Shown: piece after piece, positions 1,471 to 60,891 of the stretch | How positions within the stretch are numbered: position 1 is the first letter of the stretch | How the letters are laid out: each line of letters begins with the position of its first letter | Source of the DNA: Bdellovibrionales bacterium | GTDB lineage: Bacteria > Bdellovibrionota > Bdellovibrionia > Bdellovibrionales > JAUICD01 | Length of the DNA stretch: 64,000 nt | Assembly: GCA_965262715.1 (NCBI GenBank) | Contig: OZ253553.1 | Coordinates: forward strand, 416,001-480,000 | Direction of reading: 5' to 3' | Notes under the pieces: model-generated | Database searches by the model: none | What the model saw: only the letters and a program-made list of their open reading frames with translations | What the model was told of the DNA's origin: nothing | Program-made: the position numbers and the translations under genes

Positions 1471-1727
1471 GATTTCCATAATACTCTATAAAAAGAGGAT
1501 CTTTCTTACTCAAAATAAATAACTGACCTTAAGCGGGACACTTTAAGAAGTTGAAATCAAGTTTCAAGTATTTTTACACAATTTATATAGAAAAGCTCCA
1601 AGTTTATCTGCCTGTTTTGCTAAGTCAACGTGGCCTATCATATTCAATATAGCTTGAGCTTTTTCATTCAAAATGAACTGGCCTCTTGAGGCGAGCCTCT
1701 CGAGGTTGATTTATTTTGAGTGAAACG
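1471..1727 (+). repeat. Divergent member of the structured non-coding element family (family 1), with a different interior
   Basis: Starts gatttcc..taa..gaggat, has outer stem ACTCAAAATAAAT/ATTTATTTTGAGT and ends gaaac like other copies. Confidence 0.5.
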
Positions 1728-1734
1728 AATTAGG

Positions 1735-1800
1735 TGCAAAAATTTAAAGCAGATCCCTGTTACCTGATACTGATGCCAGATTGCCGGACTGCCAGATCCC
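1735..1800 (+). repeat. Dispersed ~65-bp repeat, second copy at 26270-26335
   Basis: agatccctgttacctgatactgatgccagattgccggactgccagatccc versus agatccctgttacctgatactgaggccagagtgccggtttgccagatccc. Confidence 0.8.
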
Positions 1801-1851
1801 GGAATAGAGATGTTGTAAAATGCAAATATTTATTTTTGAGAGGGCTTCTAA

Positions 1852-1940
1852 ATTTTCTAGGTATTAGCCATTTTTGAAAGCGACAAGCCTTCAGGCTAAT
1901 ACCAGAAAGTTACTAAAAGTGGATTTATTTTGAGTGAAAC
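1852..1940 (+). repeat. Family 1 structured element, 3' half
   Basis: ttttctag-GTATTAGCC...GGCTAATAC-cagaaag...tttattttgagtgaaac. Confidence 0.7.
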
Positions 1941-2052
1941 AAAGACAGCCAAAATACTAGTTTTTCAGAAGTATTGAAAAATACACCTGTTTATCTTTTT
2001 AGACCCTATTGAGATATTTTTAAAACCAAAATAAAATATAAAGAGAACACTT

Positions 2053-5336: not shown

Positions 5337-6116
5337 ATGTAAAATAAGGGAAAGGATTTCCTTAACATGATGTTAAACAACGGAGGGAGTCTCCCTAGTA
5401 AAATGCATCTTTCTTTCTAGGCAGTCAGCATTTTCTTGAAGGGGACACATCCCGTAACGTGAGCCTTCAGGCTGACTAGTAAATAATAACAGTTTCCCTA
5501 ACATAATGTAAGAGAATAAGGAGAGTCTCCCTACTAAAATGCATCTTTCTTTCTAGGCGATAACCATTTTCTGATGGAGCCATCAGGGTTATCGCCAGAA
5601 AGTAGCCAGAGTTAAAAGGTGTGTTGTTTTTTTAGAAAAAACAAGGAAAAAATCTTTGGAGCAATGACTTGATGTTTTAAGCTAAGCCTCGAAGTCCTCG
5701 AGTGATCGCTTGTGTAGCGATCACTCTGCGGAATATCTCGTCTTTAGCTTAAAACATCAATTCTCAAGCTGCTATGAAAAGATTTGGGTGATTTGTAAGG
5801 AGAAGGATATAGCAGAGAAGATGTAAAATAAGGGAAAGGATTTCCTTAACATGATGTTAAACAACGGAGGGAGTCTCTCTACTCAAAATAAACGGATTTT
5901 CTAGGCAGTCAGCATTTTCTTGAAGGGGACACATCCCGTAACGTGAGTCTTCAGGCTGACTAGTAAATAATAACAGTTTCCCTAACATAATGTAAGAGAA
6001 TGAGGAGAGTCTCCCTACTAAAATGCATCTTTCTTTCTAGGCGATAACCATTTTCTGATGGAGCCATCAGGGTTATCGCCAGAAAGTAGCCAGAGGCTAG
6101 ATGCATTTTAGTGAAA
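5335..6116 (+). repeat. Cluster of four family 1 structured elements, arranged as a ~277-bp duplication (5335-5611 and 5819-6095)
   Basis: Near-identical direct repeat at offset 484; each half has two ttcc(t)taacat..ggag.gtctc.ct..ttctag-stem units. Confidence 0.85.
5669..5760. repeat. RPE-1-like palindromic element (family 2)
   Basis: Outer stem TTGATGTTTTAAGCTAA/TTAGCTTAAAACATCAA; core gtcctc-GAGTGATCGCT..AGCGATCACTC-tgcgg; related copy at 22555-22630. Confidence 0.7.
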
Positions 6117-6300
6117 CAGAGGCAGGTTTATTTTTAGGGAAACATTGACTTTTAGGATTTTTTATATTAAGTTTAATCTTTAATTATTTAAGAAGTATTC
6201 TACTAATAATTGGGAGGCATAAGATGTATACTAAAGCATTGTACATTGTATCCAAATCACAAAGCCAATTTGTTTTACAGGTAGCTCTTTGTAATTTGAT

Positions 6301-15166: not shown

Positions 15167-16573
15167 GAGGATGTCCCACGTTTCGGTGAAATTGAAGTTA
15201 AGCAGAGCTTGATGTTTTGCTACGCCTGTTTCTATTGTTAGTCAATAGGTTTAAATTTTCTTCCATTGTATTTAAATCTTTATACCCTTTAATAGCTCTA
15301 AACTTTTTTTCAGCTTCAACTAAAGAAGCAGCAGCCCATCTCATAACCTGATCTGGAGAACTTCTCCAGTTCTTAACCCTGCTGACTTTATCTCTTACAA
15401 TAGAAAAAGCAGACTCAATAGGATTTGTAGAAGATAAGGTTCTCCTTAGCAGTGGAGATACCTTCAACTTGATAACTGTCAGTGTCTCCTCCTTTGCTTC
15501 CTTAAGTGAAGCCAATGCTGCATAATTAATCCTGCTTAACCAACTCAGTAACTTATTGTATTCTCTCTGAGAAGAATCATAATCATTAAAACCATGCACC
15601 ATCTTCCAGCGACGCTTAAACTCTAAATGACGTTCCTGAGGTAAATAACTTAAAACATTCCTCTCCTTGTGGTGAATACAGCGTTGAACTACTGCTCTCT
15701 TACCAAAAACTCTATTAATAGCTGTCCTTAAAGATCTGCTACCATCAATTACAAAAAGGTAAGGCTTATCTGAACAAAGACCTCTTGCTATTAAACTCTC
15801 TAATAAGTCCTTGCAAACTTCCCAGTTCTCTGTATGACCCTCTCTAAGACCCAGAACTAACTTCTTACCTTCAACTGTGATGCCAAGAGCTACAACCACT
15901 GTCCTTGATCCAAAAACAACACCATCAATCATAATTGATGAAAACTTATCCTTACTCAGATCACGACCATTTAAAGATTCAAGAAACTTCCTAGATGACT
16001 TATTAAAGACTCTGCTCACTGTACTCTTAGAAAGACCCGTCCCTCCTACAATATCATCAAGAAGTTCATTGTAATTACGACAAGATACCCCTCTCATAGC
16101 ATGACTCAAAACTTTATCACAAAGTATGTCATACTTTTGAAGCACTGAATAAGACCGCAGCTTAATATCAGAACCTCCCTTCTCCTTCACCCTAGGCTTC
16201 CTCACCTGAAGCCTTTGACCTTGTGCAAGAACACTCCCAGAATCACTACCCGCTCTGTAATATCTTGTATCACGACCACGAACATGACGCTTACCACACA
16301 GTGATAATAACTCATCCTCAAAGAAATCATGGATCATATTAATAACCATTGATCTCATGCGATGCTCTAGGATCTCTCGAATCTCATTTGACTCAGATGA
16401 TAAAACTTGAATTGAATAACCATTCTTACTACTCTTCATAATAGCTCCTTTCTGTTATCTATTTCCTGATAAAATAAAAACAGTAAACAACGGCTAGACC
16501 ACTTAGGATAGCCGGGAGCTCTACTTTCTTCTAATTTCTATAAGAAAATTTCACCGATCTATGGGACAACCTC
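15167..16573 (-). mobile_element. IS256-family insertion sequence
   Basis: Inverted ends GAGGATGTCCCACGTTTCGGTGAAATT and GAGGTTGTCCCATAGATCGGTGAAATT; ctggcctt occurs on both flanks. Confidence 0.93.
15198..16439 (-). CDS. IS256-family transposase
   Basis: Motifs IDG, VIDG, QRCIHHKERN and STNPIES. Confidence 0.95.
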   Translation of the reverse strand: MKSSKNGYSIQVLSSESNEIREILEHRMRSMVINMIHDFFEDELLSLCGKRHVRGRDTRYYRAGSDSGSVLAQGQRLQVRKPRVKEKGGSDIKLRSYSVLQKYDILCDKVLSHAMRGVSCRNYNELLDDIVGGTGLSKSTVSRVFNKSSRKFLESLNGRDLSKDKFSSIMIDGVVFGSRTVVVALGITVEGKKLVLGLREGHTENWEVCKDLLESLIARGLCSDKPYLFVIDGSRSLRTAINRVFGKRAVVQRCIHHKERNVLSYLPQERHLEFKRRWKMVHGFNDYDSSQREYNKLLSWLSRINYAALASLKEAKEETLTVIKLKVSPLLRRTLSSTNPIESAFSIVRDKVSRVKNWRSSPDQVMRWAAASLVEAEKKFRAIKGYKDLNTMEENLNLLTNNRNRRSKTSSSA

Positions 16574-18426: not shown

Positions 18427-18585
18427 TGTTTTTTATATAATGAGTTTTCTAATGGAGGTTATTTTAAAAGTAAGCTTTTTTATTATGTCTATTATATAAT
18501 AGTTATCCTAACAAAGTCATTTACAATCTTTAAAGATTTTTTTGATGTCCTAAACCAAACTTTACCTTGTATGTTCTTGAATCAT

Positions 18586-18938
18586 TGCCAGAAAGTGACC
18601 AGAGGTCAGACTATTTTTAGGGATAAGGCCTGATTTCCTTAACATTTTGTAAAGAGAGGAGGAGAGTCTCCCTCCTAAAGATAGTCAGGCTTTCTAGGCA
18701 TTGCTCTATTTGCCAAACGGCGTGAGCCAGTTTGGGAGCAATGCCAGAAAGTGACCAGAGGTCAGACTATTTTTAGGGATAAGGCCTGATTTCCTTAACA
18801 TTTTGTAAAGAGAGGAGGAGAGTCTCCCTCCTAAAGATAGTCAGGCTTTCTAGGCATTGCTCTATTTGCCAAACGGCGTGAGCCAGTTTGGGAGCAATGC
18901 CAGAAAGTGACCAGAGGTCAGACTATTTTTAGGGATAA
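18586..18938 (+). repeat. Perfect 156-bp tandem repeat (~2.3 units) of the family 1 structured element
   Basis: tgccagaaagtgaccagaggtcagac at 18586, 18742 and 18898. Confidence 0.93.
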
Positions 18939-29209: not shown

Positions 29210-29221
29210 ACAGCCTCTAGC

Positions 29222-29395: not shown

Positions 29396-29404
29396 GGTGT
29401 ATAG

Positions 29405-37275: not shown

Positions 37276-37287
37276 TGAGTATGAACT

Positions 37288-40338: not shown

Positions 40339-40343
40339 TTTAG

Positions 40344-40523: not shown

Positions 40524-42628
40524 TTCTTAAGGAGATCACTCTTTATAATTTTAGACAGTTTTATGATGAGTATACTTTAAAATTTAACACATCAACAAAT
40601 CCAGGGAAAAATGTAACCCTTGTTATTGGGCAGAATGGAAGTGGAAAAACAGCACTACTAAATTCTATCTGGTGGTGTTTGTATGGTAAAACCACTGAAA
40701 GTTTTAAAGGCTCAGAAAAGATAATTAGCCTTAAAGCTATTGCAGAATCTCAAGTTGATCAACAAGTTAGTTGTAAAGTTTCTATTATCTTTGAGCATAA
40801 TGATGGTTTAGAATATGCCATTACAAGACAGAGGATAGGAAGAGTTAGTGATAATTTAAATTTAAAAGAAAAAGATGAAAAACTTACTTTTAAGAAGGGT
40901 AATGAAGAAGAAGATCAAAATCCTTCAAAACAAAAGCAAGAGACTTATCAAGAACAAATTGAAAAATTATTACCAATAGCTTTGGCCCCTTATTTCTTCT
41001 TTGATGGGGAGTCTTTACAATATATGACTAGTAAAAATGAAAAAACGGCAACAGCTATAAGACTGATTATGGGAATAATAGTACTTACAAGATCTGCTAA
41101 TGATTTAAAAGAGATATCTAAAAAGTTTATGCATCGATGGAGAAATAATTCAGAAAATAAAAAGCTCGAGATCCAAACAGAAAAATTAGACAACATGATT
41201 GAGAAATTAAGAAAAGATGAAAAGCAATTAGAACTTGAAAATAAAGAGATTAAAGCCATTGGGGAGCGCATATCTTCTATAGAAAAAAGACTTGAAGAAG
41301 ATGAATTTACAAGACAAAGTCAAAAGGAGTTGAAAGAGGTTGAAGAAAAAATTAAGGATATAAAAAATAAACAAACTGAAAATCAAAAGAATAAAGCTGA
41401 AGCTCTATCCTCTATAGGGTGTCTTATATTCCTTGAAGATATGATAAAAAACGTTGAAAAACTGATAAAAAAATCTAAAAAAGCGGGACTTATTCCTAAA
41501 CCTTATCAAAAGGCATTTATAGAAGATTTATTAAATAGAAAAAAATGTATTTGTGGAAGTGATATTACTCAAGGGACAGAGGTATTTAATAAAATCCATC
41601 AATTAAGAGATCAAGGTAGTGATGATGATGTTGATCAGAAAGTAGCAGAACTCAATGGAAAGGTTGAGGATTACAAAGATAAAACAGAAAGTTTTAAGAA
41701 TGATTTGGATCATTATTTAAATCAGGAAGGACAACTAGAAAGTAGCCTTCTAGAATTTCAAGAAAGAGAAACTGTTATTTCAAAGAAATTAGGAAAACAA
41801 GCTAGGCAAATTGAAGAGAGTGAAAACCTTGCAGAAATAGCCGAAAGACTTAAGAAAGAAAAAGAGGAAAAAAATAAAGAAGTAAATCGTCTTGAAAATG
41901 AAATCAAAAATAATAAAAATGATCAAGATAAACTAAGAAATGAATTAAAAAAATTGACTGAAAAGGACAGAAAAGGAAAGCTTGCTAAACAAAGAATGGA
42001 GGTTGCAGAAAAAATTGGTAGCTTTTTAGAAAGCTTTGCAGAATGGCAAGAACAACAGATTCATAAAGAGTTACAAGAAGGTATAAATGAAACCTTCAAA
42101 AAAATTGCTATAAAGCCTTTTAAGATTGAATTATCTTCTTCCTATAAGTTCAAGGTTTTAAATGAATTTGGTCAAAACCATATAGAAATTGGAGAATCTG
42201 CTGGTGAATCCCAAATGCTATCACTTGCTTTTATTGGCAATCTATTACAATTAGCAAAGAAACCTAAAAATCCGCTTGCTCAAATGTTTTCAGAAGGTAT
42301 TGGTGGTCATTATCCTTTGGTGATAGACTCTCCTTTTGGGCCATTAGATGATAACTACCGTCCACAAATTATAGAAGCTGAGATAAATCTAGCACCTCAA
42401 GTGATTATTTTTGCTTCTGGCTCTCAATGGGATGATGCAATTGATAAGAAAGTCAGGCCTTATATTAATTCCCAATATTTCATCAAATATTTTAAACCTG
42501 AACATCAATGGAAGGATGAAGATAATAAGGGTTATATTTTGAAAATAAATAACAAAGAATATAAATTTCTAGAGAAAACAAGTGAATGTTTTGAGTTTTC
42601 AAAATTGGAAAAAATTAGAAATGAATAA
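40520..42628 (+). CDS. pbeC: SMC/Rad50-like ABC ATPase (PbeC-like)
   Basis: GQNGSGKT, FFFDGE, coiled coils with central CICG, SAGE and IDSPFGPLD. Confidence 0.8.
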   Translation: MILKEITLYNFRQFYDEYTLKFNTSTNPGKNVTLVIGQNGSGKTALLNSIWWCLYGKTTESFKGSEKIISLKAIAESQVDQQVSCKVSIIFEHNDGLEYAITRQRIGRVSDNLNLKEKDEKLTFKKGNEEEDQNPSKQKQETYQEQIEKLLPIALAPYFFFDGESLQYMTSKNEKTATAIRLIMGIIVLTRSANDLKEISKKFMHRWRNNSENKKLEIQTEKLDNMIEKLRKDEKQLELENKEIKAIGERISSIEKRLEEDEFTRQSQKELKEVEEKIKDIKNKQTENQKNKAEALSSIGCLIFLEDMIKNVEKLIKKSKKAGLIPKPYQKAFIEDLLNRKKCICGSDITQGTEVFNKIHQLRDQGSDDDVDQKVAELNGKVEDYKDKTESFKNDLDHYLNQEGQLESSLLEFQERETVISKKLGKQARQIEESENLAEIAERLKKEKEEKNKEVNRLENEIKNNKNDQDKLRNELKKLTEKDRKGKLAKQRMEVAEKIGSFLESFAEWQEQQIHKELQEGINETFKKIAIKPFKIELSSSYKFKVLNEFGQNHIEIGESAGESQMLSLAFIGNLLQLAKKPKNPLAQMFSEGIGGHYPLVIDSPFGPLDDNYRPQIIEAEINLAPQVIIFASGSQWDDAIDKKVRPYINSQYFIKYFKPEHQWKDEDNKGYILKINNKEYKFLEKTSECFEFSKLEKIRNE

Positions 42629-42660
42629 TAATCTAACTTTTAAAAAGTGAGTTTTTAAAT

Positions 42661-43134
42661 ATGGAAAGAGGCATTAAAAGACCTTTAGAATTTAAAACGC
42701 TGATTGAATCTTTAAGAACAGATAAAGATGATGTGTTAAAAGAATCTCCTTTTAGAACTTATGCAGAGATTATGGCCTTTTCTGCAAGTGTTGGAGCAAA
42801 GCTATCTCCAGAAGGCTTTAAAAATAATTATAAACCTGATGGTGAACCTATAAAATATTATACTTTCAAAAATGAGGGTTTTGATGGAATTATAAATATT
42901 TTAGCAGTGTATAAAACGAATAATTTAAATGTACTGACATCTGAAGGAGAACAAAAAGATAAGAAAATTGCTATCTTTGAGGGGTATGCTTATGCAGGAC
43001 TAAAAAAACTACAGTCTGTTCTTAATCGCCCTGGTATGACCCTTGATAACTTAGTAGAATTTGTGAAAGAACATATAGAAGAGAAGAAAGAAAATCAAAA
43101 AGGAGAGATAGATTTACAATCACTTTTATCTTGA
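42661..43134 (+). CDS. pbeD: DNA phosphorothioation-associated protein 4-like (PbeD-like)
   Basis: FRTYAEIMAFSASVG...IFEGYAYAGL pattern; last gene of the operon. Confidence 0.7.
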   Translation: MERGIKRPLEFKTLIESLRTDKDDVLKESPFRTYAEIMAFSASVGAKLSPEGFKNNYKPDGEPIKYYTFKNEGFDGIINILAVYKTNNLNVLTSEGEQKDKKIAIFEGYAYAGLKKLQSVLNRPGMTLDNLVEFVKEHIEEKKENQKGEIDLQSLLS

Positions 43135-43209
43135 CCTTAGAGCAGAAAAATATCTAATTTTTATTATAATTTTTATAAAAAACTTTTAGTGAAAAAGGGA
43201 ATTTAAAAT

Positions 43210-44499
43210 ATGAGTTTCAAAGGAATTGAAGTGAAAAATCTTTTAATTAATACAGAAAATCCCCGATTTGCTCCTGTTGAAAATCAACAATCTGCTATTG
43301 ATACTATGCTTACAGACAAGAGGTCAAATCTAAAAAACTTAGCCAAAAATATAGCAGAAAAGGGTTTGAACCCTGGAGAGCTGTTATATGTTACAAAGGA
43401 AAACAAAAAATATATTGTTCTTGAAGGTAATCGTAGAGTGACAGCTATAAAATTAATCACTGATCCTCAGCTTGTAAGAAATAACGCAAAGAATAAAAAG
43501 TTTTTTCAGGATTTAAGCAATAAATACATAGATAATTTATCATTGAAATTAAATTGTGTGGTTTTTAATAATAAAAAAGATGCAGAACATTGGGTTAAGC
43601 AAAGACATACTGGCGAGAATAAGGGTATTGGAACGGTTGCATGGAGTACTGAACAACAAGAACGGTATCGATCTCAAGTCACTGGATCACCGTCCAAACT
43701 TGTTCAAGTTCTTGATTTTATAAGAAAACACAATATTAGACATAGTAGTAAAAAAGATACAATTATTCAAAAAGTACTTAGCACTCCTTATGTGCGAAAG
43801 CAAATAGGCATAGACTTCAGAAAGGGAAAACTAATATTAGTTCAAGATGAAAAAAGTGTTGTTAGAAATTTTGAAAAAGTTATAAATAAAATAGATGCTT
43901 CTAATTTTAGTCCTAGAGATACTATTGATTCAAAAGAGAAAAGAAGAATATGGATAGATAACGTTTTAGGAGATCAAACTCCTAAAAAGACATCTAAGGC
44001 AGAAAGAGAAAGAAATAATAAAAAAATAAAGAAACAAACATCGATCAACAATAGAAGTAGAAAAACATTAATCCCTTCAGATTTTATACTTAATATCACT
44101 CAAGAAAGGATTAACTTAATTTATGAGGAATTAAAGTCTTTGGAGATCAAGAAGTATAACAATGCTGTAGCTGTTCTCTTTCGTGTTTTTTTAGAATTAA
44201 GCTTAGATCATTTTATTGATGAGAATAAAGAAAGAATAAAGCTAAGATCAGAAAAAAATACGAGACCACCTACACTTAAGGATAAATTAGAAGGCATTGT
44301 TAAATATATGGAAGAGGAGAAGATTTTAACAAAACATGAGCTAAAACCTATTCGCACAAGTATATCAGATAACGACTCTCTATTCTCTGTTGATACATTT
44401 AATTCTTATGTCCATAATCGAGACCATAATCCCATTACTGAATATTTAGAGAAAACTTGGAGCAATTATAGTAAGTTTATTCCAAAATTATGGGAATAA
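43210..44499 (+). CDS. ParB/Srx-like N-terminal domain protein with HEPN-like C-terminal domain
   Basis: ENPRF and VLEGNRR in the N-terminus; AVLFRVFLE...FNSYVHN in the C-terminus. Confidence 0.65.
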   Translation: MSFKGIEVKNLLINTENPRFAPVENQQSAIDTMLTDKRSNLKNLAKNIAEKGLNPGELLYVTKENKKYIVLEGNRRVTAIKLITDPQLVRNNAKNKKFFQDLSNKYIDNLSLKLNCVVFNNKKDAEHWVKQRHTGENKGIGTVAWSTEQQERYRSQVTGSPSKLVQVLDFIRKHNIRHSSKKDTIIQKVLSTPYVRKQIGIDFRKGKLILVQDEKSVVRNFEKVINKIDASNFSPRDTIDSKEKRRIWIDNVLGDQTPKKTSKAERERNNKKIKKQTSINNRSRKTLIPSDFILNITQERINLIYEELKSLEIKKYNNAVAVLFRVFLELSLDHFIDENKERIKLRSEKNTRPPTLKDKLEGIVKYMEEEKILTKHELKPIRTSISDNDSLFSVDTFNSYVHNRDHNPITEYLEKTWSNYSKFIPKLWE

Positions 44500-44638
44500 C
44501 TCGAAAAATAAAATCAAACCTAGTATGTGTTACATTTTGAAAAACAGATTATTCCTTTTCTAAAGAGATTTTCATTTCCTTTTAGCCTCAAATATCTTTC
44601 CAAATAATTTGAAAATGTTGATTTAATATAAGGTCAAT

Positions 44639-45766
44639 TTAATGAATAAAGTGCTTGAGTTCTTTGGCAATTTGAGAGGCTTCTTTTTGGCTTATGCTAT
44701 AACCAATAGATAATCGAATGGAGGATAAACTCTCTTCATCTGTCAGCCCAATAGCTTTTAAAACATGGCTGGGTTGATAATCATGAGAAGTGCAAGCAGA
44801 GCCATTGCTCAAAGCAAGCTCTTTAAGCCTTAAAAATAAAGCTTCTGACCTCACTCCCTGTATTCTAAAACTTAAAGTAGTGGCAAGCTTGGAGTCTATC
44901 TCTACATTGAATTGAATCAATGGAGATTGTGTTAGCTCTGACTTAATAGAGTTTAAAATAGATAAAAGTTTTTTTTTGTTGACCCTAGAGTGCAGCTTTT
45001 GACAAACCTCTGATGCTTTTGCAAATCCTGCAATTAAAGGAGTGGGGAGTGTACCAGATCTAAGTCCTCCTTCATGTCCTCCACCAAAAATAATAGGACT
45101 TAATGGTTTTCGTGATTTTCTACCATTAATAAAAAGACAACCAATGCCCTTTGGACCATAAATTTTATGAGCCGAAGCTGTATAATAGTCAATACTCTGA
45201 TTCAAGTTTAAAGGGACTTTACAAAATCCTTGAGCTCCATCCACATGAACAAAAGCTCCTGCCTCTTTTGCTAAACTCGCCACATCTTGCACAGGTTGAA
45301 TTGTACCAAGTTCATTGTTGACATGCATTAATGAAACAAGGCCTGTTTTTTCATCTAGAACTTTAGCAAAGTCTTCAGGGCAAACATAACCTGTCTTCTT
45401 TGGCTTTATATAGATGATTTCAAATCCTTCTTCTTGCAAGTGATTTAAAGGGTCTAAGACAGACTTATGTTCAAACTCTGAAGTAATGATTTTTGTCCTG
45501 CCTATTTCTTTAAGGTGTTTTTTAATTCCCAAAATGACTAAATTATTAGCTTCAGTCGCTCCGGAAGTGAAAATAACGTATTTTGACTCTAAGCTAAATA
45601 AAGAAGCTAATTTTGATCTGCACTCAGAGATCACTTTATGGGTTTGTCTGCCTGGTTCGTGAGTTCTTGAAGCTGGATTAGCAAATTTTTCAGAAAAATA
45701 AGGAAGCATTGCATCTAGCACTTCATGATGGACAGGCGTTGTGGCATTGTAATCAAGATAAATCAT
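44639..45766 (-). CDS. dndA: Cysteine desulfurase DndA
   Basis: YLDYNATTP, SAHKIYGPKG and SNGSAC; overlaps dndE. Confidence 0.9.
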   Translation of the reverse strand: MIYLDYNATTPVHHEVLDAMLPYFSEKFANPASRTHEPGRQTHKVISECRSKLASLFSLESKYVIFTSGATEANNLVILGIKKHLKEIGRTKIITSEFEHKSVLDPLNHLQEEGFEIIYIKPKKTGYVCPEDFAKVLDEKTGLVSLMHVNNELGTIQPVQDVASLAKEAGAFVHVDGAQGFCKVPLNLNQSIDYYTASAHKIYGPKGIGCLFINGRKSRKPLSPIIFGGGHEGGLRSGTLPTPLIAGFAKASEVCQKLHSRVNKKKLLSILNSIKSELTQSPLIQFNVEIDSKLATTLSFRIQGVRSEALFLRLKELALSNGSACTSHDYQPSHVLKAIGLTDEESLSSIRLSIGYSISQKEASQIAKELKHFIH

Positions 45767-46158
45767 AAGTTTTGTTCTTTTATGAGATAAAGAATATCTT
45801 CCTGATTTTTAACTCTTGCAGAAAGTGCTATTACACCTCTATTAATGTGAGCCACCATATAAGACGTAATCTCTTTAGAAGTCATCGAGTTTTCTTTTTG
45901 AGAGTTGTTTTTTTTATAAAGTCCTCTCTCCTTCAACATACACATATAAATAGGGTCATATTCACCAAATAGGGTTAAACGATTAAATTCCATACCGTCC
46001 TCTCTGTAGAAATCTTTTTGAGGGGGTCTATCATCTTCAAGAGATAATGCTAAAGCTATTCTGGCAATAGGATAGAGTGATTCTGTTTTAAGACGCATCT
46101 TTAATTGCCTCATCTTATCAGTAGCTTCTTGTGAAACTTTAATTCTATTTGTTATCAT
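45763..46158 (-). CDS. dndE: DNA sulfur modification protein DndE
   Basis: RIKVS, ARIALALSL, GMEFNRLTLFGEY and HINRG; position after dndD. Confidence 0.9.
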   Translation of the reverse strand: MITNRIKVSQEATDKMRQLKMRLKTESLYPIARIALALSLEDDRPPQKDFYREDGMEFNRLTLFGEYDPIYMCMLKERGLYKKNNSQKENSMTSKEITSYMVAHINRGVIALSARVKNQEDILYLIKEQNL

Positions 46159-48173
46159 TGCATACCATCCATAGAAATTTGATCTGGAAAAAGATAGCCT
46201 TTATGAATATTTGAATAGCCCTTTTGAAGATTAAAGTTAATGCTGTAAGAGTGAGAAATATGTTTTTGCATTTTATCAAAGTAACTTTTGTGAATCTCTG
46301 TATCAGTAGAGAGGATAACAACTTGATGACTTGCCTTAGGAAAGAAGTTTTTAATTAGCTGATCTCTATGATGGGCATCTAATCGCCCTAAAGGAGTATC
46401 AATAATCATGGGTAATGCTTTACCTGATGTTTTAGCTAAAGCCCATAAAACAGAAATAGCATAGATTTGTTTTTCTCCAGCAGATAACATATCAACAGGA
46501 ATGACTTTTTGATTCTTGTCAAGCATAGTGACCTCAAAACAAGATGGGTCAATTTTTACACTTTTAATAAATCCTGATTTACCATGAACTTGAGAATAAC
46601 AATCATAGATTGCACCTTCTAATTGTTTTAATTTTTGCTGAGTTAATTCCTTTTCAAACTGAAAGAGCACTTTTTTTATATTGTCAATTCTTGCATAACA
46701 GTCTTTTTGTTCCTTATTTTTTTCAAGGTCATCATGTAATTTTTTTTGTCTTTTAGAAAGCAGCTCAAGTTCTCTTTTATTTTTACCTAATTCTTTATCA
46801 TACAACTGAACTTCTTTTTCTTGTGAACCAAGTATTTGGTTTTGTGTACTGATTTCTTTATGAAGTTGTATTACAGTATCACTTTCAAGAGTGCGCTCTA
46901 TTTGGCTTTCTACTTTCTTAATATGACGACTTAACTTTTCCAATTCCTTAAATAGTTCAACTAATTCATTTTTTTCCTCTTTTGTGTTATTTAACAGATC
47001 AAGACATTGATAAGCAGAACGAACATCTAACTCATATTTAATATCCTCTTTAGAAAAATCAGAAAGCCAAGTACTAGTATAACCAGAGAGTTGATCGGAA
47101 AGAGATTGAGCAATGTTGTGTTTGATTTTAAGCTCTTTCGCAATACGTTTGACAGTTTTGTCTAATTCTATTCTTTTCTTGGCAAGAACATCATTAGAAA
47201 TTTTAATTTCTAAAGCTTGAATTTCTTTTTTAAGTTGAAGTGAAACTTTTTTAATCAAAGAGGGAGCTAACATAAAAGGAATATGACTTTCACACTTATA
47301 TGCCACTGCTTGTCTCGTTTGATCAATTTTTATATTATCTTCTTTTTGATATTCTTTTAATTTATCTCGTTTTTCGTAATATTCTCCTCCCTCCTTTTTT
47401 AGTTTTTCTTCTAGTCGTTTTATATATGATTTTGTAGAGCTTACTTTACTATTTGAAGAGGCATGAGATGACTGGCATTTATCAAACTCTTTTTTAAGAA
47501 CAGATATTTTATTAGAAATATTTTTTAACTCCTTAGAAGTGAGAACCCCTTTAGAGGTTTCTATATGTTTTTTATAGATCATTTGAAGGTCTGTTGAAAG
47601 ACTTGGGATAATTGATAAGTTTAAAAGGGACTTTACAGAATAGGCTAAATTTTGATTTGAGCCTTCAGCAAGGGTTTGAATTTTTTCACCATCAAAGAAG
47701 AACAAATCAATCACACCTTGAGGGATAAGGTCTTCTATAAAATCTTGCCAAAAAGAAGGATCTAAGTTTAAAAGCTGTCCATCTTGTTCGATTGATAGAT
47801 CTTCCTTAATGGAGTGACCTGATAAATACCACTTACGAACAATATTGTATTCATATTCTCTTGACTTTGTAGGATGATCACCTTCTCTGAAAGCTTTGAA
47901 CTTCAGTTGAACAAAAGTCATTTCATCTTTTTTTGTAAACCAATTGATTCGAGACTTGAGGTAAGATAAATATTCTGACGTTGATATCCTTTCATTAAGT
48001 GACTTAGAACCATATAAACATAACTTAATAGCTTCAAATAGAGTTGATTTTCCAGCTCCATTTTTTCCGCCAATGAGTAAAACACTTTTCTTTTGTGTTT
48101 TTGGGGTTAAATCTAAATTATGGCATCCATTATAAATACCAAAGTTTTGTAACTTAATAGCAGATATTAGCAT
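46155..48173 (-). CDS. dndD: DNA sulfur modification protein DndD (SMC-like ATPase)
   Basis: GGKNGAGKST, LFFFDGEKI, LSAGEKQ, IDTPLGRLD, FPKASHQV and STDTEI. Confidence 0.95.
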   Translation of the reverse strand: MLISAIKLQNFGIYNGCHNLDLTPKTQKKSVLLIGGKNGAGKSTLFEAIKLCLYGSKSLNERISTSEYLSYLKSRINWFTKKDEMTFVQLKFKAFREGDHPTKSREYEYNIVRKWYLSGHSIKEDLSIEQDGQLLNLDPSFWQDFIEDLIPQGVIDLFFFDGEKIQTLAEGSNQNLAYSVKSLLNLSIIPSLSTDLQMIYKKHIETSKGVLTSKELKNISNKISVLKKEFDKCQSSHASSNSKVSSTKSYIKRLEEKLKKEGGEYYEKRDKLKEYQKEDNIKIDQTRQAVAYKCESHIPFMLAPSLIKKVSLQLKKEIQALEIKISNDVLAKKRIELDKTVKRIAKELKIKHNIAQSLSDQLSGYTSTWLSDFSKEDIKYELDVRSAYQCLDLLNNTKEEKNELVELFKELEKLSRHIKKVESQIERTLESDTVIQLHKEISTQNQILGSQEKEVQLYDKELGKNKRELELLSKRQKKLHDDLEKNKEQKDCYARIDNIKKVLFQFEKELTQQKLKQLEGAIYDCYSQVHGKSGFIKSVKIDPSCFEVTMLDKNQKVIPVDMLSAGEKQIYAISVLWALAKTSGKALPMIIDTPLGRLDAHHRDQLIKNFFPKASHQVVILSTDTEIHKSYFDKMQKHISHSYSINFNLQKGYSNIHKGYLFPDQISMDGMQ

Positions 48174-48191
48174 TTGTTTCTCTCTTTGGTT

Positions 48192-49703
48192 TTATTTTAA
48201 GAGTTGATAAATTTTATGAGTTTGTATGTTTTCGGTTTTAAGTCTTTTCTTTCGAGACTTTATAATTTCAGATGTCGCTCTCCATTCCTCTGTAATAACA
48301 TTTTCTAGGTCGTGAATGACTTTAGTTCTTCTTTTAAGGCCATCATAGGACCTTGCTGTATCAAGCAGTTTTGCAACGAGTTGCGTAGGCACATTGTTTT
48401 CCTGACATATATGATCAAGTAGACGATAATCTAATCCATTAAATCCACCTCCTTTTATATTTTTAAGAGGATATTCTTTTTGCATAATCTCTTCATAAAT
48501 CTGAGGAACACTATCATCCCAGTCTTGAAGTTCAATTCGCCAAAGCTTTCTGATTTCCTCTAACTCTGCCATTGAGATTAGTTCAAAATATTCTTTTGTA
48601 GTGTTTTTTGCATTGACCTTTTTTTCAGTCAAAAGAAGTTTTTTTAAAAAATCTTTTAAGTATTTAAACTTATAAGGCCCATAAGATAACTGTGAAGAGG
48701 TACGCTCTTTTTCTTTTCGACTGCTCTTTTCATTATTTGTTTTTCGAGTTAACCAGTGAGCTTGTCCAGATCTTCTTTTATGATCTCGATATTTCTTTTT
48801 ACCTTCTGGGGTTTGTGTTTCTGCTAACATATCCCGAAAATCAAGCAGTGGTTCCAACCATCCTTCACCATTTTCTACCATAGCTGTAAGCGCTTTGTCT
48901 TGTTTAACTACAGTGCATGTCCAGCAACCAAAACGGCTATTTCCACAGGAAGCTGTTGAAGTATCTATCACAAGAGGGCATTCTCCTGCATTGGCTGATT
49001 TATAAAGTGACAAAAGAGAGTGATTGTCAAATCCCCAAGGACAGTCATATTGTAATAAGAAAGCCCAAACATCATCTGTTGAAAAGTCTTTGATTGGAGG
49101 ATAAACGTATGCGCCGCTTAGTGTAGAGTGTCTTGAAAGTAATGCATTAGGGTTGTATTTATCCTTATTTTTTTTGAATGTGCTAGCACGAGCAGTAGAC
49201 TCATTTGCTCTTACACCTAGTACCATAATAACTTCACCATACCGTGAAACTTGATCTGCTATAAATTTATTAGCAGGTTTGATCTTCATTCGGTCAGTGC
49301 ACCAACGAAATTGTTGGGATGGGGCAGGATAACCTCTTCCTAATAAATTCACCCAGAAAGTATTTGTAACTTCTGGCTCTACTTTGACTGCTTTAATGGG
49401 CAAGTTATCTTTTTTTGCAGCTTTTTCGATAAGTGCTAAATTGATATCTACATGATTTACAATTGCTGGAGTTTCTACTTTTGTATCTGATGAAAGAACA
49501 TAAACTGTTTTATTAAGTTCCTTCAGTGGCAAGTCAAGTAGAGATAGGTAAATAAGTTGTGTGATAGCTGTAGAATCTTTTCCTCCAGAGTAGCCAATAA
49601 TCCATGGAGTGTTGTTTTTAAGGTATAGATCCTGAATTTCTTGTTTCAAACTGTGAAGTTTTCTTCCTCCAAAACTATTTAAAGATGTTTTTGTTGTTGT
49701 CAT
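48192..49703 (-). CDS. dndC: Phosphorothioation sulfurtransferase DndC (PAPS reductase-like)
   Basis: PWIIGYSGGKDS, GRGYPAP, RWCTDRMKI, ECP...SCGNSRFGCWTCTVV. Confidence 0.96.
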   Translation of the reverse strand: MTTTKTSLNSFGGRKLHSLKQEIQDLYLKNNTPWIIGYSGGKDSTAITQLIYLSLLDLPLKELNKTVYVLSSDTKVETPAIVNHVDINLALIEKAAKKDNLPIKAVKVEPEVTNTFWVNLLGRGYPAPSQQFRWCTDRMKIKPANKFIADQVSRYGEVIMVLGVRANESTARASTFKKNKDKYNPNALLSRHSTLSGAYVYPPIKDFSTDDVWAFLLQYDCPWGFDNHSLLSLYKSANAGECPLVIDTSTASCGNSRFGCWTCTVVKQDKALTAMVENGEGWLEPLLDFRDMLAETQTPEGKKKYRDHKRRSGQAHWLTRKTNNEKSSRKEKERTSSQLSYGPYKFKYLKDFLKKLLLTEKKVNAKNTTKEYFELISMAELEEIRKLWRIELQDWDDSVPQIYEEIMQKEYPLKNIKGGGFNGLDYRLLDHICQENNVPTQLVAKLLDTARSYDGLKRRTKVIHDLENVITEEWRATSEIIKSRKKRLKTENIQTHKIYQLLK

Positions 49704-49760
49704 TTCTATCTAACCTTTTTTAATTTTTAAAACACACAATCTTTAGCAAAACTTATTTTT

Positions 49761-50840
49761 TTAAAGAGTTCTTGTATTTATATACTGTTTATCTTCATTA
49801 GTCAGTGGAATCTTTAACTGTTGTTTGATCACAATCGAAGTACGCTTCACACTATCTGCTGATTTAGATACTCGTCCGTTGATCAGAGCATTTCCCTCCC
49901 AAAGCTTTGTATTTGATCTAGCCCAATCAATGCCACTAAGACCTTTTAGATAGCTCTGCCATTTCTTGGTGTATCTTTTTGTTATATCATAACCTACATT
50001 ACCAATAGCTTGCAGGGCAACCCCATGCCCATGAACATATTCTTCTCTTAACAAAGCTGAAGAAATCTTACGTGCTTTAGCTGCCTTCCACTGGTGCATA
50101 TTTTTTGTCACATGATTCCAGAAAGTTATAGCTTTTTCTCTGTCTAATTCTGTAATAAGATCATCTTTCTTACGGCTATCTAATAAAACTTTTGTTGCGT
50201 TATAGATAGAAGAAAGAGTGAATAGTTTTGTCGAGCGGTTGGAAATAGAGCTTTTTTCTTTCTCAGTTAATCCATTGAAAATATTGTTTTTTTCGATGAT
50301 ATCCCTTGTCAACTGGCTCAAAGGGCTTCGGTGATCATATAAAATACCTATTGATTGAGTTGGACGCACTGCATGCCTATTCAAATCTGCAAAAAGTTGT
50401 TGAGATCGTTTAAGCCCTTCATCAACAAGAAAAACAACAGATATTGACTCGCCGCCCAATTCAGGTATAGTTTTAAGAGCTTCTTCTATTGCTGCCCTGC
50501 GGTGTTGTCCATCGTTTATGATAAATTTACAGTCCATAGATATAGAGAGCATGCCAATATTTGGATTGTCATTATGAGCTTTAAAATCATATTCGGAGTC
50601 AATGGAAGCAGTAATGGATGAGAAGACATAATTTTTTGGATTATAAATCAAATAGTTTGTCATTTCTGGAATACGGGCTTTATTAAGCACTCTCTGAGCA
50701 CGCAATTCGGGTCTTAATTCTTCATCAATAAAAGTAAAGATTTTAGGGACAAGCCGCAGTGGACACATCACAGTGAAATATTCCTTACAAGCCTGTATAC
50801 CCCTAATTGCTGGAAAAGAAAATGCATTTGTGATGGCCAT
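49761..50840 (-). CDS. dndB: DNA sulfur modification regulator DndB
   Basis: FPAIRGIQA, RAQR.LN..R, INDGQHRRAAI and FADLN. Confidence 0.95.
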   Translation of the reverse strand: MAITNAFSFPAIRGIQACKEYFTVMCPLRLVPKIFTFIDEELRPELRAQRVLNKARIPEMTNYLIYNPKNYVFSSITASIDSEYDFKAHNDNPNIGMLSISMDCKFIINDGQHRRAAIEEALKTIPELGGESISVVFLVDEGLKRSQQLFADLNRHAVRPTQSIGILYDHRSPLSQLTRDIIEKNNIFNGLTEKEKSSISNRSTKLFTLSSIYNATKVLLDSRKKDDLITELDREKAITFWNHVTKNMHQWKAAKARKISSALLREEYVHGHGVALQAIGNVGYDITKRYTKKWQSYLKGLSGIDWARSNTKLWEGNALINGRVSKSADSVKRTSIVIKQQLKIPLTNEDKQYINTRTL

Positions 50841-57370: not shown

Positions 57371-58173
57371 AAATTGACACCAAGGATGCCAATCCCTTTA
57401 AAGACATGAGTTGGACTACGAAGGTTAAATTGCTCTCCACCTAGACCTATAGTAGGGAATTTAACAAATTGATATTGTACTTCAAGTCCAAAAAAAATCT
57501 TATTGAGTGTGAGTGGAAACTCTATACCTATTCCTCCATGAAACCCAAAGATTCTTTTAAGATCAGCAACAGTACCTTCATTTCTAAATTTTATCCTTCG
57601 GGTGATGCTGCTTCCTCCAATCATGAAATAAGGATTGAAAGAGGCTAGGCCTTCTGTGATGTTTTGAGTATTTAGGTAATATTTTAAGTCGAAACCTATT
57701 TGTGAAAGCAACATTTCACTTACAAAACGTTCTCTGTTTGGATCGTTTATTTCTACCTCCAAGCTTCTAAAAGGGTGTATACCTGTGGTGTAGTGAAATT
57801 GTATGGCAATTCTCATGTTGAAGAAGAAAGAGAAAAAGCCTCCTATTATAAATCCTTGCCTTGTATGTTGCCCCAACTTCTGTGTGAGCATTCTCATGCC
57901 TCCTAATAATCCTATAGATAGCAAACGTCCATGTTTGAAAAAGTAAATATCAGCTTCTTCTGTAGTAGTATCTTGAAACTCTGAATAATCTGTAAAAGGA
58001 TCATAGGTATCACTTGGATCTGAGTATTGTTGTTGTGCTAAATAAGTGTCCTTTTGTTCAAAGGAGAGGGTGTTTTCAGAGGCATTTGCGAAAGGGATCG
58101 CTAAAAAAGATAAAAAAGCGATAAAATAGCTTTTTTGTATAATAATGAGATAAAATCGATGGTTAAATAGCAC
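57367..58173 (-). CDS. Outer-membrane beta-barrel protein
   Basis: Signal peptide, alternating beta strands and C-terminal Phe (ILGVNF). Confidence 0.7.
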   Translation of the reverse strand: MLFNHRFYLIIIQKSYFIAFLSFLAIPFANASENTLSFEQKDTYLAQQQYSDPSDTYDPFTDYSEFQDTTTEEADIYFFKHGRLLSIGLLGGMRMLTQKLGQHTRQGFIIGGFFSFFFNMRIAIQFHYTTGIHPFRSLEVEINDPNRERFVSEMLLSQIGFDLKYYLNTQNITEGLASFNPYFMIGGSSITRRIKFRNEGTVADLKRIFGFHGGIGIEFPLTLNKIFFGLEVQYQFVKFPTIGLGGEQFNLRSPTHVFKGIGILGVNF

Positions 58174-58446
58174 TTTCTTCTCTTTAATTATTTATTTTGT
58201 TAAGTTTAAGTTCTCATATTTCAATTCATAAAGGTGTATAGGTTTTATAATATAGACCTGCTTATATATCTTTCGTCATTTTAACTGTGATATTTAATAT
58301 TTTAGTTATAAAATGAATCAATTGATAAAAGATAGAGAGATATACTTTGCTAGATAACGCCTTTATTATTAGATCAAATGATTTGTTTTTAGCTATTTAC
58401 TTGTTATAGTTGTTGTAAGTCAATTCTCGTGTTGTGAATCAGGGGG

Positions 58447-60695
58447 ATGCTATTAACAGTGGGACGTCTTGAGATATTTCATGTTATTCTGTTGTTATGC
58501 TTATTCTTTACAAGCTCAGCTTTGTTAGCCCGTCAATATGAGACAAATTCATTGATTTTTTTAGATAGAGATATTTTATCCAGTGATGATATATTAAGCT
58601 GTTCTACTCAACAGGATATGCAAAATATTTTATCGCAGAGTCAGAATTTAAGTTCATCAAATAGCTTAATAAATGATCGGCGAGCGAATGTAAAAGCAAA
58701 TTGGTTAGCGGATGACCTACTTGGATTTCCTTTAACAAGGTTAAATCAATCAATAATCATTCGTGGGGTTGTAACTCATTTGCCAGATAATGGTGAGACT
58801 CCCTTAGATCGCATGAATCGAAAAAATGTGCTTGCAGGATATAGGTAAGCAATATAACAAATAGAGTACAAGCTAGAGTTACTTCTGATGATGAGAGTTG
58901 TTTTTTAACTTTAGTTTATTGTAACCAAGGAGGTGATTGCCTTAATGAAGAGGGTCGGCTTAATATCTATACGCAATTTCCTATTTTAGGTTTCTCTAAA
59001 AAGCATCAGGTTATAATAATTGACCCTTCTTTGTTTGGTAGATATTTGAGTGATCAAATAACTAGTTTTCCTATAAGGCATCCTCTTATTAATGAACCAC
59101 AGTTTATATCTAAAGTTCTTACAGGGGATTCTCAATCCTCTATTGTAGATTTTTCTCAAGAAACTTTGATTTTTGATGTCACATCGACAATTAACTGGTC
59201 GAAAGTACATTTTGAAGAGGATGGATTAATATTTAGAGATGATTTTAGGGAAGGCATTTCTGATGAATATCTTTCAGAGATAACTTCTCGTTGGGCTATA
59301 AAATTTAATAAAGATGTAACAGAAAACAACTTTATTACCAGAGTTCCAATAGATGGAATTGAGACCATAAATGTATATTCAACTTTATATGGTAAACCTG
59401 TTATTCAGAAGTGGAGGCTTGTTGATGATAGTGGCAACCCTCGTTTTATAAATTATTATGTAAAAAATGTACCTGAAATGTGGCAAAGTTCTTTTCGAGA
59501 AGGTTTTGAATATTGGAATTCTATTTCTATGGAACTTAGAGGAAGTCCTATTTTTACTTACAAATTTATTCAAGGCGACTATGATGGTCAGCAGGAAGTT
59601 ATCACAGGAGATATAAGGTTTAATGTATTGGAATGGGACACTCAGTACAAACAGAGATATTTAGGTACAGCATCTGGTTCCTATGACAACGCAGGAGAGG
59701 TTTTACACTCAAGTATTTTGGTACAGGGGCCTCGATTGGTGGATGAGTATCAAAGATGGTTTCGATACAGTCAAATGATCAGGTCAGGTGAGCCTATAGA
59801 AGATATACCCTTGTCTGCAAATCGTTTTGAAAGAGATATGATGAAAATAGTCTCTCAAGTGAATTTACAAGACCAGAGAAAAACTCACTTGCAAGTCTTA
59901 CAGCTAGCTCCGGCAAGTGAAACCTTTGAAGATTATATGTCAGGATTTTTTAGACTCTTAGTTGCTCATGAATTAGGACATCCATTAGGGCTTGGTCACT
60001 ATTATATGGCTAACATTTACGCGCAAGATGGCTATGTCGGCAATTCTGTTATGGACCTTGCAGGAAGAGTTGATGGATATAAACTAAGTTCAAGACATTA
60101 TGACCGAAAGGCCATTGCCTATATCTATCTAGGTATATTACCTGATTTTAATCAAAAAGTTGTATCTTGTTCAAGAAGAAATTTAATCACACTTGATCGT
60201 ATTGATAAAAATATGTTTCCAGAATGTTCTGATATAGATGCCACTAACAATCCTCTTGAAAGTTTTGCGCGAGAATTGCAAGAAACTTTTGATTTATTAA
60301 CGGAAAGGAGAAATATTCAAGCGAATCCTTATCTTATCTGGAATGATCAAGTTGAAATATATATTAGAAGTCGTATTTTAGGCATTATGTCTTATTATGT
60401 TTCAGCAGATTTTAGTTATGATAAGGTTCAAAGTGTTTTAATAGAAGGTCGCAGTCCAGTAAGTCCTCAAGAACTTAAGCAGGTTGTTTTAGAAAAATAT
60501 ATCACACCTATAGTTTGTCAAGCCAGTAGTATGATGATAAAAAATAGTTTTCAAAACCAAGATCATCCTCAAACTTTTTCTGATAGGCTTATTCAAACAA
60601 ATTCTACTCATTTTCAGAGGATTGTCAGGTCCGGCGCACTTCCCTATTTAGATGAATCGCTACAATGTCCAAGTGTAGAGATAACAACACATTAG
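58447..60695 (+). pseudogene. Secreted metzincin-type Zn metalloprotease split by a frameshift near 58840
   Basis: Signal peptide in 58447..58848; the second frame is open from ~58844 to 60695 with HELGHPLGLGH and Met-turn NSVMD. Confidence 0.75.
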
Positions 60696-60742
60696 AAAAG
60701 CAGTTCTTTATACCTTTTTACCATCCGTGCATGGGCGCAGTT

Positions 60743-60891
60743 GTTTCCCTAAAAATGCTCTGGCCTCTGGCCACTTTTTGACAACCAGCCTGACTAGCTC
60801 TCGCTGTCAGGCAAATAGCTGGTTGTCTAAAAAGATTGAGCATTTTCAAGAGGGAGAATCCTCTTATTTTTTTTAAACGATGTTAAGAAAA
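60743..60891 (-). repeat. Family 1 structured element on the minus strand, flanked by 13-bp CCGTGCATGGGCG repeats
   Basis: Reverse complement: ttcttaacat..gaggattctccct-CTTGAAAATGCTC..ctttttaGACAACCAG..agcGAGAgct..CTGGTTGTCaaaaag-TGGCCagaGGCCA-GAGCATTTTTAGG-gaaac. Confidence 0.8.

Follow-up and report, generated by a model that had tools for sequence, protein, structure and literature searches.

A mobile intergenic repeat with a covarying three-way-junction fold in one genus of Bdellovibrionales

A 64,000-nt stretch of a Bdellovibrionales genome (the window) carries copies of a ~145-nt intergenic repeat that share one architecture although their stems differ in sequence, and it raises the question of whether selection on such a fold marks a functional RNA or a structure-mobilised repeat, both of which had been named in a first-pass annotation of the window. 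The element is real, undescribed and restricted to one genus; it is mobile, and constraint on a single-stranded three-way-junction fold is supported. As to its route, the chance is put at about even (roughly 0.5) that the element spreads as folded single-stranded DNA, with a putative enzyme joining its fixed 3' end to a nick beside a hairpin, often that of an older copy.

Anatomy, copies and covariation

A profile search over the whole source genome (G000, 2.94 Mb) gave 481 matches, or 454 after antisense shadows were taken out, which group into 239 loci and make up 2.0% of the genome and 8.7% of its non-coding DNA. Both ends are present in 301 matches, only the 3' end is missing from 101, only the 5' end from 44, and both ends from 8. 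Only 19 of the 214 single-strand loci overlap an open reading frame (ORF) of at least 100 aa, and no copies lie inside the ORFs of insertion sequences (IS). All four gene-flank geometries are occupied, with the upstream gene co-oriented at 126 of 214 loci. The comparison genomes were G001 (same genus, 90% complete; at least 268 full-length copies from 124 sampled loci) and G002, G003 and G004 (related genomes). Coordinates are those of the window unless prefixed G000.

The unit is composed of a ~36-nt head, an outer stem (P1), a long interrupted stem (P2), a small hairpin with an AGA loop (P3) and a tail. The head consensus begins TTTCCYTAACAT, with the first 12 bases nearly invariant, and includes a short inverted repeat and a weak purine-pyrimidine hairpin. 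P2 has a bulged A, a T-rich bulge of 6-8 nt and an apical hairpin, and the tail terminates in GAAAC plus one or two purines. Conservation reaches background ~7 nt before the head and 3 nt past the tail, and the two ends have a short imperfect inverted repeat in common. The P1, P2 and P3 stems quoted in the first-pass annotation are present in the sequence; the conserved head upstream of P1 had been omitted there. The unpaired parts are also kept, including the bulged A (99%, conserved as first described), the AGA loop (96-98%), the T-rich bulge and the head.

A three-way junction is the predicted fold of the plus strand, which is the better-folding strand in 135 of 149 G000 copies with RNA parameters and in 121 of 149 with DNA parameters. 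The copy at 18791-18938 has a fold stability of z = -6.9, with 0 of 200 shuffles equally stable. The apical loops, first described as GNRA, are most commonly so (102/167 in G000 and 122/211 in G001), but the class is GNNA, as GNYA loops account for 24/167 and 83/211. The minus strand presents a terminator-like hairpin. No Rfam family matched the window at gathering score, and a search of 15 loci gave 13 chance-level matches (17-23 bits, all far below cut-off) and no ribozyme motif. A literature search found no paper on this repeat family, most subscription papers and supplements being outside its coverage.

At least eight copies had been counted in the window. The family stands, with hundreds of members genome-wide, but of its copies in the window just four are complete; another five are truncated or end without pairing, and the copy placed at 1471 is a set of fragments: a head with P1 arm, an unrelated interior and two back-to-back tails. 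The features are as follows.

5978..6117, plus strand: complete copy with head, P1, P2 with a short apical hairpin, P3 and tail (covariance model, 141.8 bits)
6118..6143, plus strand: extra tail made of the P3 3' half and right P1 arm of another allele, read as the remnant of an older copy whose left arm is probably in 5842-5962
5842..5962, plus strand: 3'-truncated copy, head to P2 (model positions 1-106)
5358..5481, plus strand: 3'-truncated copy (model positions 1-109)
5494..5640, plus strand: copy that is intact until P3 begins and continues into a recurrent alternative end without pairing to P1 (96.6 bits)
5669..5762, no strand assigned: second, unrelated palindromic repeat nested in the cluster
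18581..18625, plus strand: 5'-truncated copy with the right half of P2, P3 and tail (model positions 100-145)
18635..18782, plus strand: complete copy, first of a tandem pair (149.4 bits)
18791..18938, plus strand: complete copy, second of the tandem pair (149.4 bits; fold z as above)
60743..60890, minus strand: complete copy (138.1 bits)
60898..60921, minus strand: orphan, decayed repeat of the CRISPR array G000 482274-483078, on the element's head side
60714..60737, minus strand: another decayed copy of that CRISPR repeat, comprising its last 24 nt, on the element's tail side (target duplication)
1851..1941, plus strand: 5'-truncated, decayed copy, P2 to tail (model positions 54-147)
1473..1520, plus strand: decayed head and left P1 arm only
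1665..1726, no strand assigned: two back-to-back tails with a common expanded palindromic P3, the minus-strand tail entering a four-helix-bundle gene fragment
1567..1656, minus strand: 3' fragment (residues 68-97) of a four-helix-bundle gene (tblastn E 1e-6; TIGR02436)

The intervals 5339-5640 and 5820-6117 resemble a local duplication of a truncated plus full pair.

Pairing is kept through changes in both arms of the helices, in line with the covarying fold first proposed. An alignment of 32 copies from three genomes (3 of 20 regions, which had no recovered copy, were excluded) is paired in 96.8% of cells, with double changes at 29 of 40 pairs; 0 of 500 shuffles reach this level, and slid controls pair at 34-48%. 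Among 149 unique canonical G000 copies, the eleven column pairs of highest mutual information are all nested pairs of the fold. The tail pairs and covaries with the internal left arm of P1, not with the head.

Shared descent does not explain this covariation. A test of diagnostic columns was run on all copies, a few comparisons within P1 or within P3 being counted as between-helix. For every diagnostic base, the association with the pairing partner exceeds that with any diagnostic base in between (11/11 in G000 and in G001), and the helices reassort, since all four allele combinations are present in 75 of 81 (G000) and 57 of 69 (G001) comparisons of diagnostic pairs. Mispaired cross-states are few (107 vs 808 expected in G000, and 99 vs 1238 expected in G001). 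The proposed constraint on a single-stranded three-way junction is supported in both genomes. The further statement that G-U pairs fall on the same strand in all copies describes a bias and not a rule: G-T cells exceed A-C cells (107 vs 61 in G000 and 134 vs 65 in G001), but the bias is weak when independent events are counted (C>T 51 vs G>A 31, p=0.035; A>G 28 vs T>C 23).

The G000 copies have a median pairwise identity of 68%, and the dispersed ones are almost all unique (median nearest-neighbour identity 86%; 17/253 at 97% or above). Those of G001 are younger, with a median nearest-neighbour identity of 95%. Allele types were parsed by helix for 76 of 149 copies in G000 and for 122 of 241 in G001; each G001 helix has few allele types, mostly common to many copies.

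Mobility, range and insertion sites

Two intergenic regions that are filled on contigs of a ~90%-identical relative, binned with G004, are empty in G000; thus, the element is mobile. Three orthologous sites are filled in both, with different stems. The copy at G000 304937 has its site and its rare head variants in common with the relative and differs from it in P2 and P3.

A covariance model built for the element and applied to 151 genomes of the order found three carriers (G000, G001 and G004), and no carrier besides G000 was found with it in a 151-genome sample of the phylum. Hundreds of copies occur in G001. The G004 copies are confined to three small contigs (C1, C4 and C11) that are 82-95% identical to G000 and that duplicate ribosomal-protein genes of contig C14, such that G004 holds a second rplN, 76% identical. 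These contigs are likely mis-binned DNA of a close relative of G000, judging from their sequence; G004 was rejected as a second carrier genus on the same identities and the second, distant rplN, and on this reading the true known range is one genus. Viral contigs gave 0 pattern-scan matches, plasmids and phages gave none, and the five pattern matches in JGI metagenomes did not score with the covariance model.

The 3' end of the element is constant to within a few bases and the 5' junction is variable. Across the empty-site comparisons (relative and paralogous repeats), tail junctions are sharp and 0-200 nt of extra DNA are found on the head side. At empty sites in paralogous repeats of G000, the tail meets the target within a few bases of GAAAC, the head side has 0-20 extra bases, and the target loses ~0-20 nt or is duplicated. 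An identical head-side extra occurs at two distant loci, G000 497002 and 2507590. About half of the tail junctions of G000 read AG (CT on the opposite strand), and in G001 AA is about as common as AG; REP/REPIN processing cuts and transfers single-stranded DNA at C^T. Contigs from four runs of one sample span unique flanks and end at repeats; their junctions, ambiguous among genomic copies, were unused.

Target duplication has no fixed length, the target showing none, a deletion or a duplication of 25-60 bp. Short target-site duplications (TSDs) are not apparent, the longest word common to both flanks being the same as in shuffled pairs at 4-8 nt. Long flanking direct repeats are found at 8 of 86 solo copies in G000 vs 0.8 expected, several of which are CRISPR or tRNA cases, and at 12 of 91 in G001 vs 5.8 expected, a weak excess. 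The G000 duplications include a perfect one of 31 bp (the 3' part of a tRNA) and one of 32 bp.

Older copies are frequent targets of new ones, to judge from the junctions. Of the distinct 3' junctions, 34/228 in G000 and 60/258 in G001 have a complete copy followed by a second tail, which starts at the P3 loop (28 and 44, respectively) or at the P3/P1 junction (6 and 16); another 24 of the 258 in G001 enter the head loop of an opposite-strand copy. The second tail is of a different allele in 29/36 (G000) and 63/67 (G001) cases, the copy's own tail is the better fit to its own left arm in 27/29 and 58/63, and the distinct allele pairs at nested junctions number 32 and 54. The P3-loop junctions are interpreted as insertions of a new copy into an older one, whose 5' part is thereby replaced.

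In the tandem arrays of G000, the repeated unit is mostly a copy plus the flank upstream of it. Between rpsQ and rplN (G000 2842700-2843535) lies an array with the rpsQ 3' end duplicated in each spacer and two element types mixed; no copy is present at this site in G001, G002 or G003. P3 is expanded at G000 2566563-2566814 and 2863524-2863711 and at window 1680-1710 by repeats of a 14-nt unit that holds its own reverse complement, as from snap-back synthesis. Together with copy number, empty orthologous sites, nesting and truncations, tandem amplification bears out the suggestion of a structure-mobilised repeat.

Copies also lie next to other structured sequences. Of 38 tRNA genes in G000, 12 have a copy within 150 nt, and at six the tail is within 8 nt of the tRNA end. 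The trailer repeat of the same type I-Fv-like CRISPR array in G000 and G001 is followed by a copy and then by a duplicate of the repeat's last 24 nt, the copies carrying species-typical stems in each genome; spacer acquisition was rejected for this site on two grounds, the trailer-end position of the insertion and the lack of the first 4 nt of the repeat in the duplicate. The window copy at 60743-60890 is a displaced version of this repeat-element-repeat unit, and orphan units of this kind are found at G000 490431-490637 and window 60714-60921. Four-helix-bundle genes are likewise close to copies (21/33 matches within 400 nt vs a 17% background) and are sometimes split by them; a gene fragment behind an element tail, as at 1567..1656, recurs at several other loci. 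Both four-helix-bundle and Rpn genes are interrupted by copies.

Routes of spread and rival explanations

If a folded DNA single strand is what spreads, the recognition signal would consist of the head and of the fold, in which the bulged A and the AGA loop are near-invariant, so that mainly well-paired copies would act as donors. A nick would be made in the target, at a stem-loop or next to one, with joining or extension of the opposite strand in the tail-to-head direction. At an older copy, the far end would be resolved by homology, overwriting the old copy and leaving its tail behind; elsewhere, microhomology may produce the 25-60-bp duplications, small deletions or carried upstream DNA. 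Recombination among copies would make mosaics, of which a fold filter would keep the matched ones and the mismatched ones would be replaced or decay.

DNA is favoured over RNA as the folded form because GNNA loops are common, no reverse transcriptase (RT) is found in G001, and TnpA-REP offers a precedent. GNNA is a stable DNA tetraloop class according to PMC10085684 (citing Nakano 2002). In PMC3333891 and PMC8266576, TnpA-REP is described as needing a bulged single-strand hairpin, cutting at variable distance and recombining BIMEs, such that a bulged hairpin can direct strand exchange between repeats and tandem amplification. The mode of the element would, by analogy, be like this processing of REP/BIME sequences, without membership of that family. 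Similarly to REP/BIME/REPIN sequences (TnpA-REP/RAYT), the element has hundreds of intergenic copies, a bulged single-strand fold with pairing kept in varying stems (its near-invariant bulged A lies between covarying pairs, like the conserved bulge in the sequence-variable stem of REP/REPIN), tandem units with variable linkers and a proposed integration by recombination with repeat-bearing targets. By contrast, it is a 145-nt three-way junction with a separate head rather than a hairpin of 20-40 nt, column conservation reveals no GTAG/GGAG at the foot of P1, P2 or P3, inverted REP doublets are absent, no RAYT was found in G000 or G001, and some target duplications are long.

Several observations weigh against this route. 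The element is sampled in only two genomes and ~80 kb of a third, all of one clade. AG at the tail junction is not strict, long flanking duplications are found at a minority of solo copies, and HUH transposition does not typically give such duplications. Of the truncated upstream fragments, only 13 of 31 are a match to the extra tail (4/7 in G000 and 9/24 in G001), and deletion between two tandem copies could yield the same extra tails, although it also needs breaks at the P3 loop. Copies tend to be oriented with the genes next to them (63 vs 37, p=0.012). Where the flanking genes converge or diverge, orientation has no bias relative to skew (41 vs 37), although lagging-strand HUH insertion would predict one; the skew of G000 is scrambled. 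GNRA is still the commonest tetraloop of both genomes. A profile from four Y1/RAYT-like proteins finds nothing in G000 besides an IS200 gene, and the 0 Y1/RAYT matches in G001 come from a genome that is 90% complete, so that loss or a gap is possible.

The first-pass annotation had suggested a linked RT, HUH/RAYT, TnpB or IscB gene; no RT, HUH/RAYT or TnpB gene is found beside copies or in G001 (IscB was not searched by its own family). G000 has a single Y1 protein, the TnpA of an IS200 that has its own ends; no copy of the element lies within 1.8 kb of it. The RTs of G000 include that of a group II intron, a broken copy of it and a retron St85-type fusion, one element copy lying ~440 nt downstream of the retron RT, which is compatible with chance at this density. 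In the fusion (G000 2650522-2652294; 590 aa), a retron St85 RT (248 bits) is combined with an effector-like domain of the retron St85 family (96.8 bits against a cut-off of 100). A motif scan of G000 ORFs gave no further RT and no further convincing HUH protein, and G001 has no RVT_1 or group II RT match. Two tyrosine recombinases of G000 score at best 75.5 bits against the integron integrase cut-off of 265. IS110 DEDD recombinases have 0 matches in G000 and G001 (found in G002 and 6 controls), Ku was found in neither genome, and TnpB zinc-ribbon matches occur only in 1343- and 1365-aa frames of Cas12 size. The IS91/ISCR Y2 transposase has 0 matches in five genomes, control genomes being also without a match. 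GIY-YIG matches one long UvrC-sized frame per genome, which is no candidate, and DUF559 gave no candidate either.

Three protein families considered as mobilisers are present in both carriers and also in element-free relatives. Rpn nucleases (19 Pfam matches and 43 ORFs by blast in G000, 16 in G001) number 16 in element-free G003; 12 of the 43 ORFs have a copy within 400 nt vs the 17% background. Four-helix-bundle proteins are equally expanded (19) on the element-free contigs of G004 itself. Cas1 is present in G000 and G001 and also in element-free G003. An autonomous long version with an ORF inside P1 was likewise set aside, since, among 398 heads, long distances from head to partner are accounted for by nesting, by arrays or by an IS, a judgement based on the first 110 nt and on known arrays rather than on every interior. 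A likeness of the head to a XerD site was dropped by eye, the positions that need TT being variable.

A bolder and tentative proposal, given less credit than the folded-DNA route, is that the element represents a new class of bacterial non-autonomous element that would home to stem-loops by target-primed copy-in, chiefly to its own older copies, so that the family as a whole would undergo constant overwriting and evolve through the swapping of whole helices. Its mobiliser might be a structure-reading nickase/recombinase outside the RT, Y1/RAYT, IS110, TnpB and integron integrase families. It might otherwise be one of the expanded host families, for instance the Rpn nucleases, in a new role, possibly helped by the four-helix-bundle proteins, near whose genes the element clusters. 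A mobiliser that proved to be new would insert DNA under the guidance of structure. The means of spread is still open for small structured repeats, including bcr1, the Rickettsia palindromic elements (RPEs) and many REP-like families, most of which have no known enzyme. The footprints of the present element are unusually readable in this respect, with a fixed 3' junction, exact preferred sites in its own fold and overwritten orthologous copies, and its near-saturating covariation within a single genome maps the bases that a protein must read.

Other repeats provide closer or more distant parallels. Like the element, bcr1 of the Bacillus cereus group is ~155 bp, mobile between close strains and folded into a branched structure with compensatory changes, with no known mobiliser (PMC3184786). 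In that description, bcr1 is always flanked by 5-bp direct repeats and is transcribed, whereas the duplications of the element are absent or 25-60 bp. Modular reassortment of helices and nesting at a fixed loop further set the element apart from bcr1 as described, and neither Rfam nor the plasmid search linked the two. The RPEs, as presented in PMC10969869 and PMC3184786, are structured repeats of ~105-150 bp in mobile-element-rich genomes of host-associated type, with the mechanism open, and are often in frame inside genes. The element differs in being nearly all intergenic, in its far denser covariation and in its self-nesting. Retron msr-msd and other RT-mobilised RNAs have an adjacent cognate RT, which the element lacks; guide RNAs of TnpB/IscB (reRNA, omega-RNA, HEARO) have no Rfam match here and no linked TnpB, the IscB family not having been searched separately; and the DEDD recombinase of IS110/IS1111 bridge-RNA elements was not found in G000 or G001. 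Integron attC sites share with the element a conserved structure rather than sequence, extrahelical bases and one folding strand. The element differs from them in having no paired RYYYAAC/GTTRRRY ends (the tail lacks GTTRRRY), no cassette arrangement and no integron integrase found.

Less probable than a DNA route, and a minority view, is a retroelement resembling a short interspersed nuclear element (SINE), in which read-through plus-strand RNA folds and is inserted by target-primed reverse transcription from its 3' end through a borrowed RT. SINEs and retrozymes share with the element a fixed 3' end, a variable 5' end, variable duplications and tandem multimers. The fixed 3' end with microhomology, the 5' junctions with upstream DNA, the duplications and deletions of varied length, the co-orientation with flanking genes, the better folding of the plus strand in 135/149 copies (RNA parameters) and the group II intron and retron RTs of G000 would all fit. 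The element is, however, bacterial, has no Rfam ribozyme motif, and is youngest in G001, in which no RVT_1 or group II RT is matched. Its 3'-truncated copies exceed the 5'-truncated ones (101 vs 44 in G000 and 106 vs 30 in G001, short tails being under-detected), GNYA loops are frequent, and the terminator-like hairpin of the minus strand could give the co-orientation by selection.

Slightly less credible still is an origin in host processes only, by which, in replication and repair, stalled or nicked strands at hairpins would switch template onto a folded copy, gene conversion would shuffle the helices, and mismatch correction in the folded state would re-match the arms, the covariation being partly mechanical. 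No candidate mobiliser tracks the element, the P3 expansions of the 14-nt unit look like snap-back synthesis, junctions are heterogeneous, and weak selection is plausible in an IS-rich genome. Hairpin correction, however, would erase or ignore the bulged A, T-rich bulge, AGA loop and unpaired head, all of which are kept. The few shared allele types per G001 helix (122/241 copies) are also unlike continual re-templating of private mutations, and junctions fall at a few exact positions.

A functional structured RNA or cis-regulatory RNA, acting in stability, termination or as a protein sponge and amplified for host benefit, is improbable. Its strong covariation, its GNRA loops as the commonest type and the avoidance of coding DNA (19/214 single-strand loci, with none inside IS ORFs) would be expected of such an RNA. 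It is, however, found in one genus only, its loci are gained and lost between ~90%-identical relatives, and the rpsQ-rplN site has no copy in G001. Truncation affects about a third of matches, four-helix-bundle and Rpn genes are interrupted by copies, each of the four gene-flank geometries is used, loops often depart from GNRA, and Rfam gives nothing at threshold; the functional RNA proposed alongside the mobile repeat is thus not borne out. In this case, strong covariation is most likely the mark of a mobile element rather than of a gene, a caution for the discovery of non-coding RNAs.

An ordinary MITE (miniature inverted-repeat transposable element) moved in trans by a resident DDE transposase, with the fold incidental, is largely refuted: the ends do share a short imperfect inverted repeat and G000 is rich in IS30, IS1634-like, IS5-like, IS256 and IS3-like elements, but the ends of seven multi-copy IS families score only 3-8 against those of the element (IS1595 ends could not be delimited), TSD length is not fixed, 5' junctions are heterogeneous, and the tail covaries with the internal left P1 arm, not with the head. 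The names IS1634, IS5 and IS3 are presumed in part for the resident families.

Companion repeats, gene families and neighbouring loci

The second palindromic repeat of the window cluster is ~94 nt long, with its own terminal inverted repeats and a variable inner hairpin. It occupies 43 loci in G000, 36 of which are within 200 nt of the main element (20% expected), and is also found on the contaminant contigs of G004.

The four-helix-bundle genes of G000 (TIGR02436/PF05635; 33 tblastn matches and 19 Pfam matches) are flanked by 8-nt tandem repeats, with examples at window 1567-1656 and at G000 157292, 2438232 and 2622800. The family is also expanded in G001, G004 and a few other genomes of the order.

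The type I-Fv-like CRISPR-Cas locus (G000 482274-489446, also in G001) includes Cas7fv (89 bits, below cut-off), a split Cas3 and a 28-nt repeat. At least four more CRISPR-Cas loci are present in G000 (1355417-1366221, 2343919-2352470, 2450770-2460013 and 2589509-2604208). Among them are a frame of 1644 aa that is presumably Cas9-like and neighbouring frames of 1334 and 1407 aa taken by eye to be Cas12-like, the Cas1 and zinc-ribbon matches being independent of this assumption.

Several IS families are present at 10-27 copies in G000, along with 43 ORFs of the Rpn family. Transposases in the window are of IS256, IS30 and, twice, DDE_Tnp_1 type (15198-16439, 22700-23653, 24221-25909 and 61582-63234). 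Multi-copy ORFs at 21164-22102, 26481-27956 and 28304-30837 have signal-peptide-like starts and no Pfam or NCBIfam match. A DNA phosphorothioation cluster (DndB, PAPS reductase, SMC-like ATPase, DndE and desulfurase) lies at 35980-50840 and faces a helicase/ATPase group that may be a restriction module.

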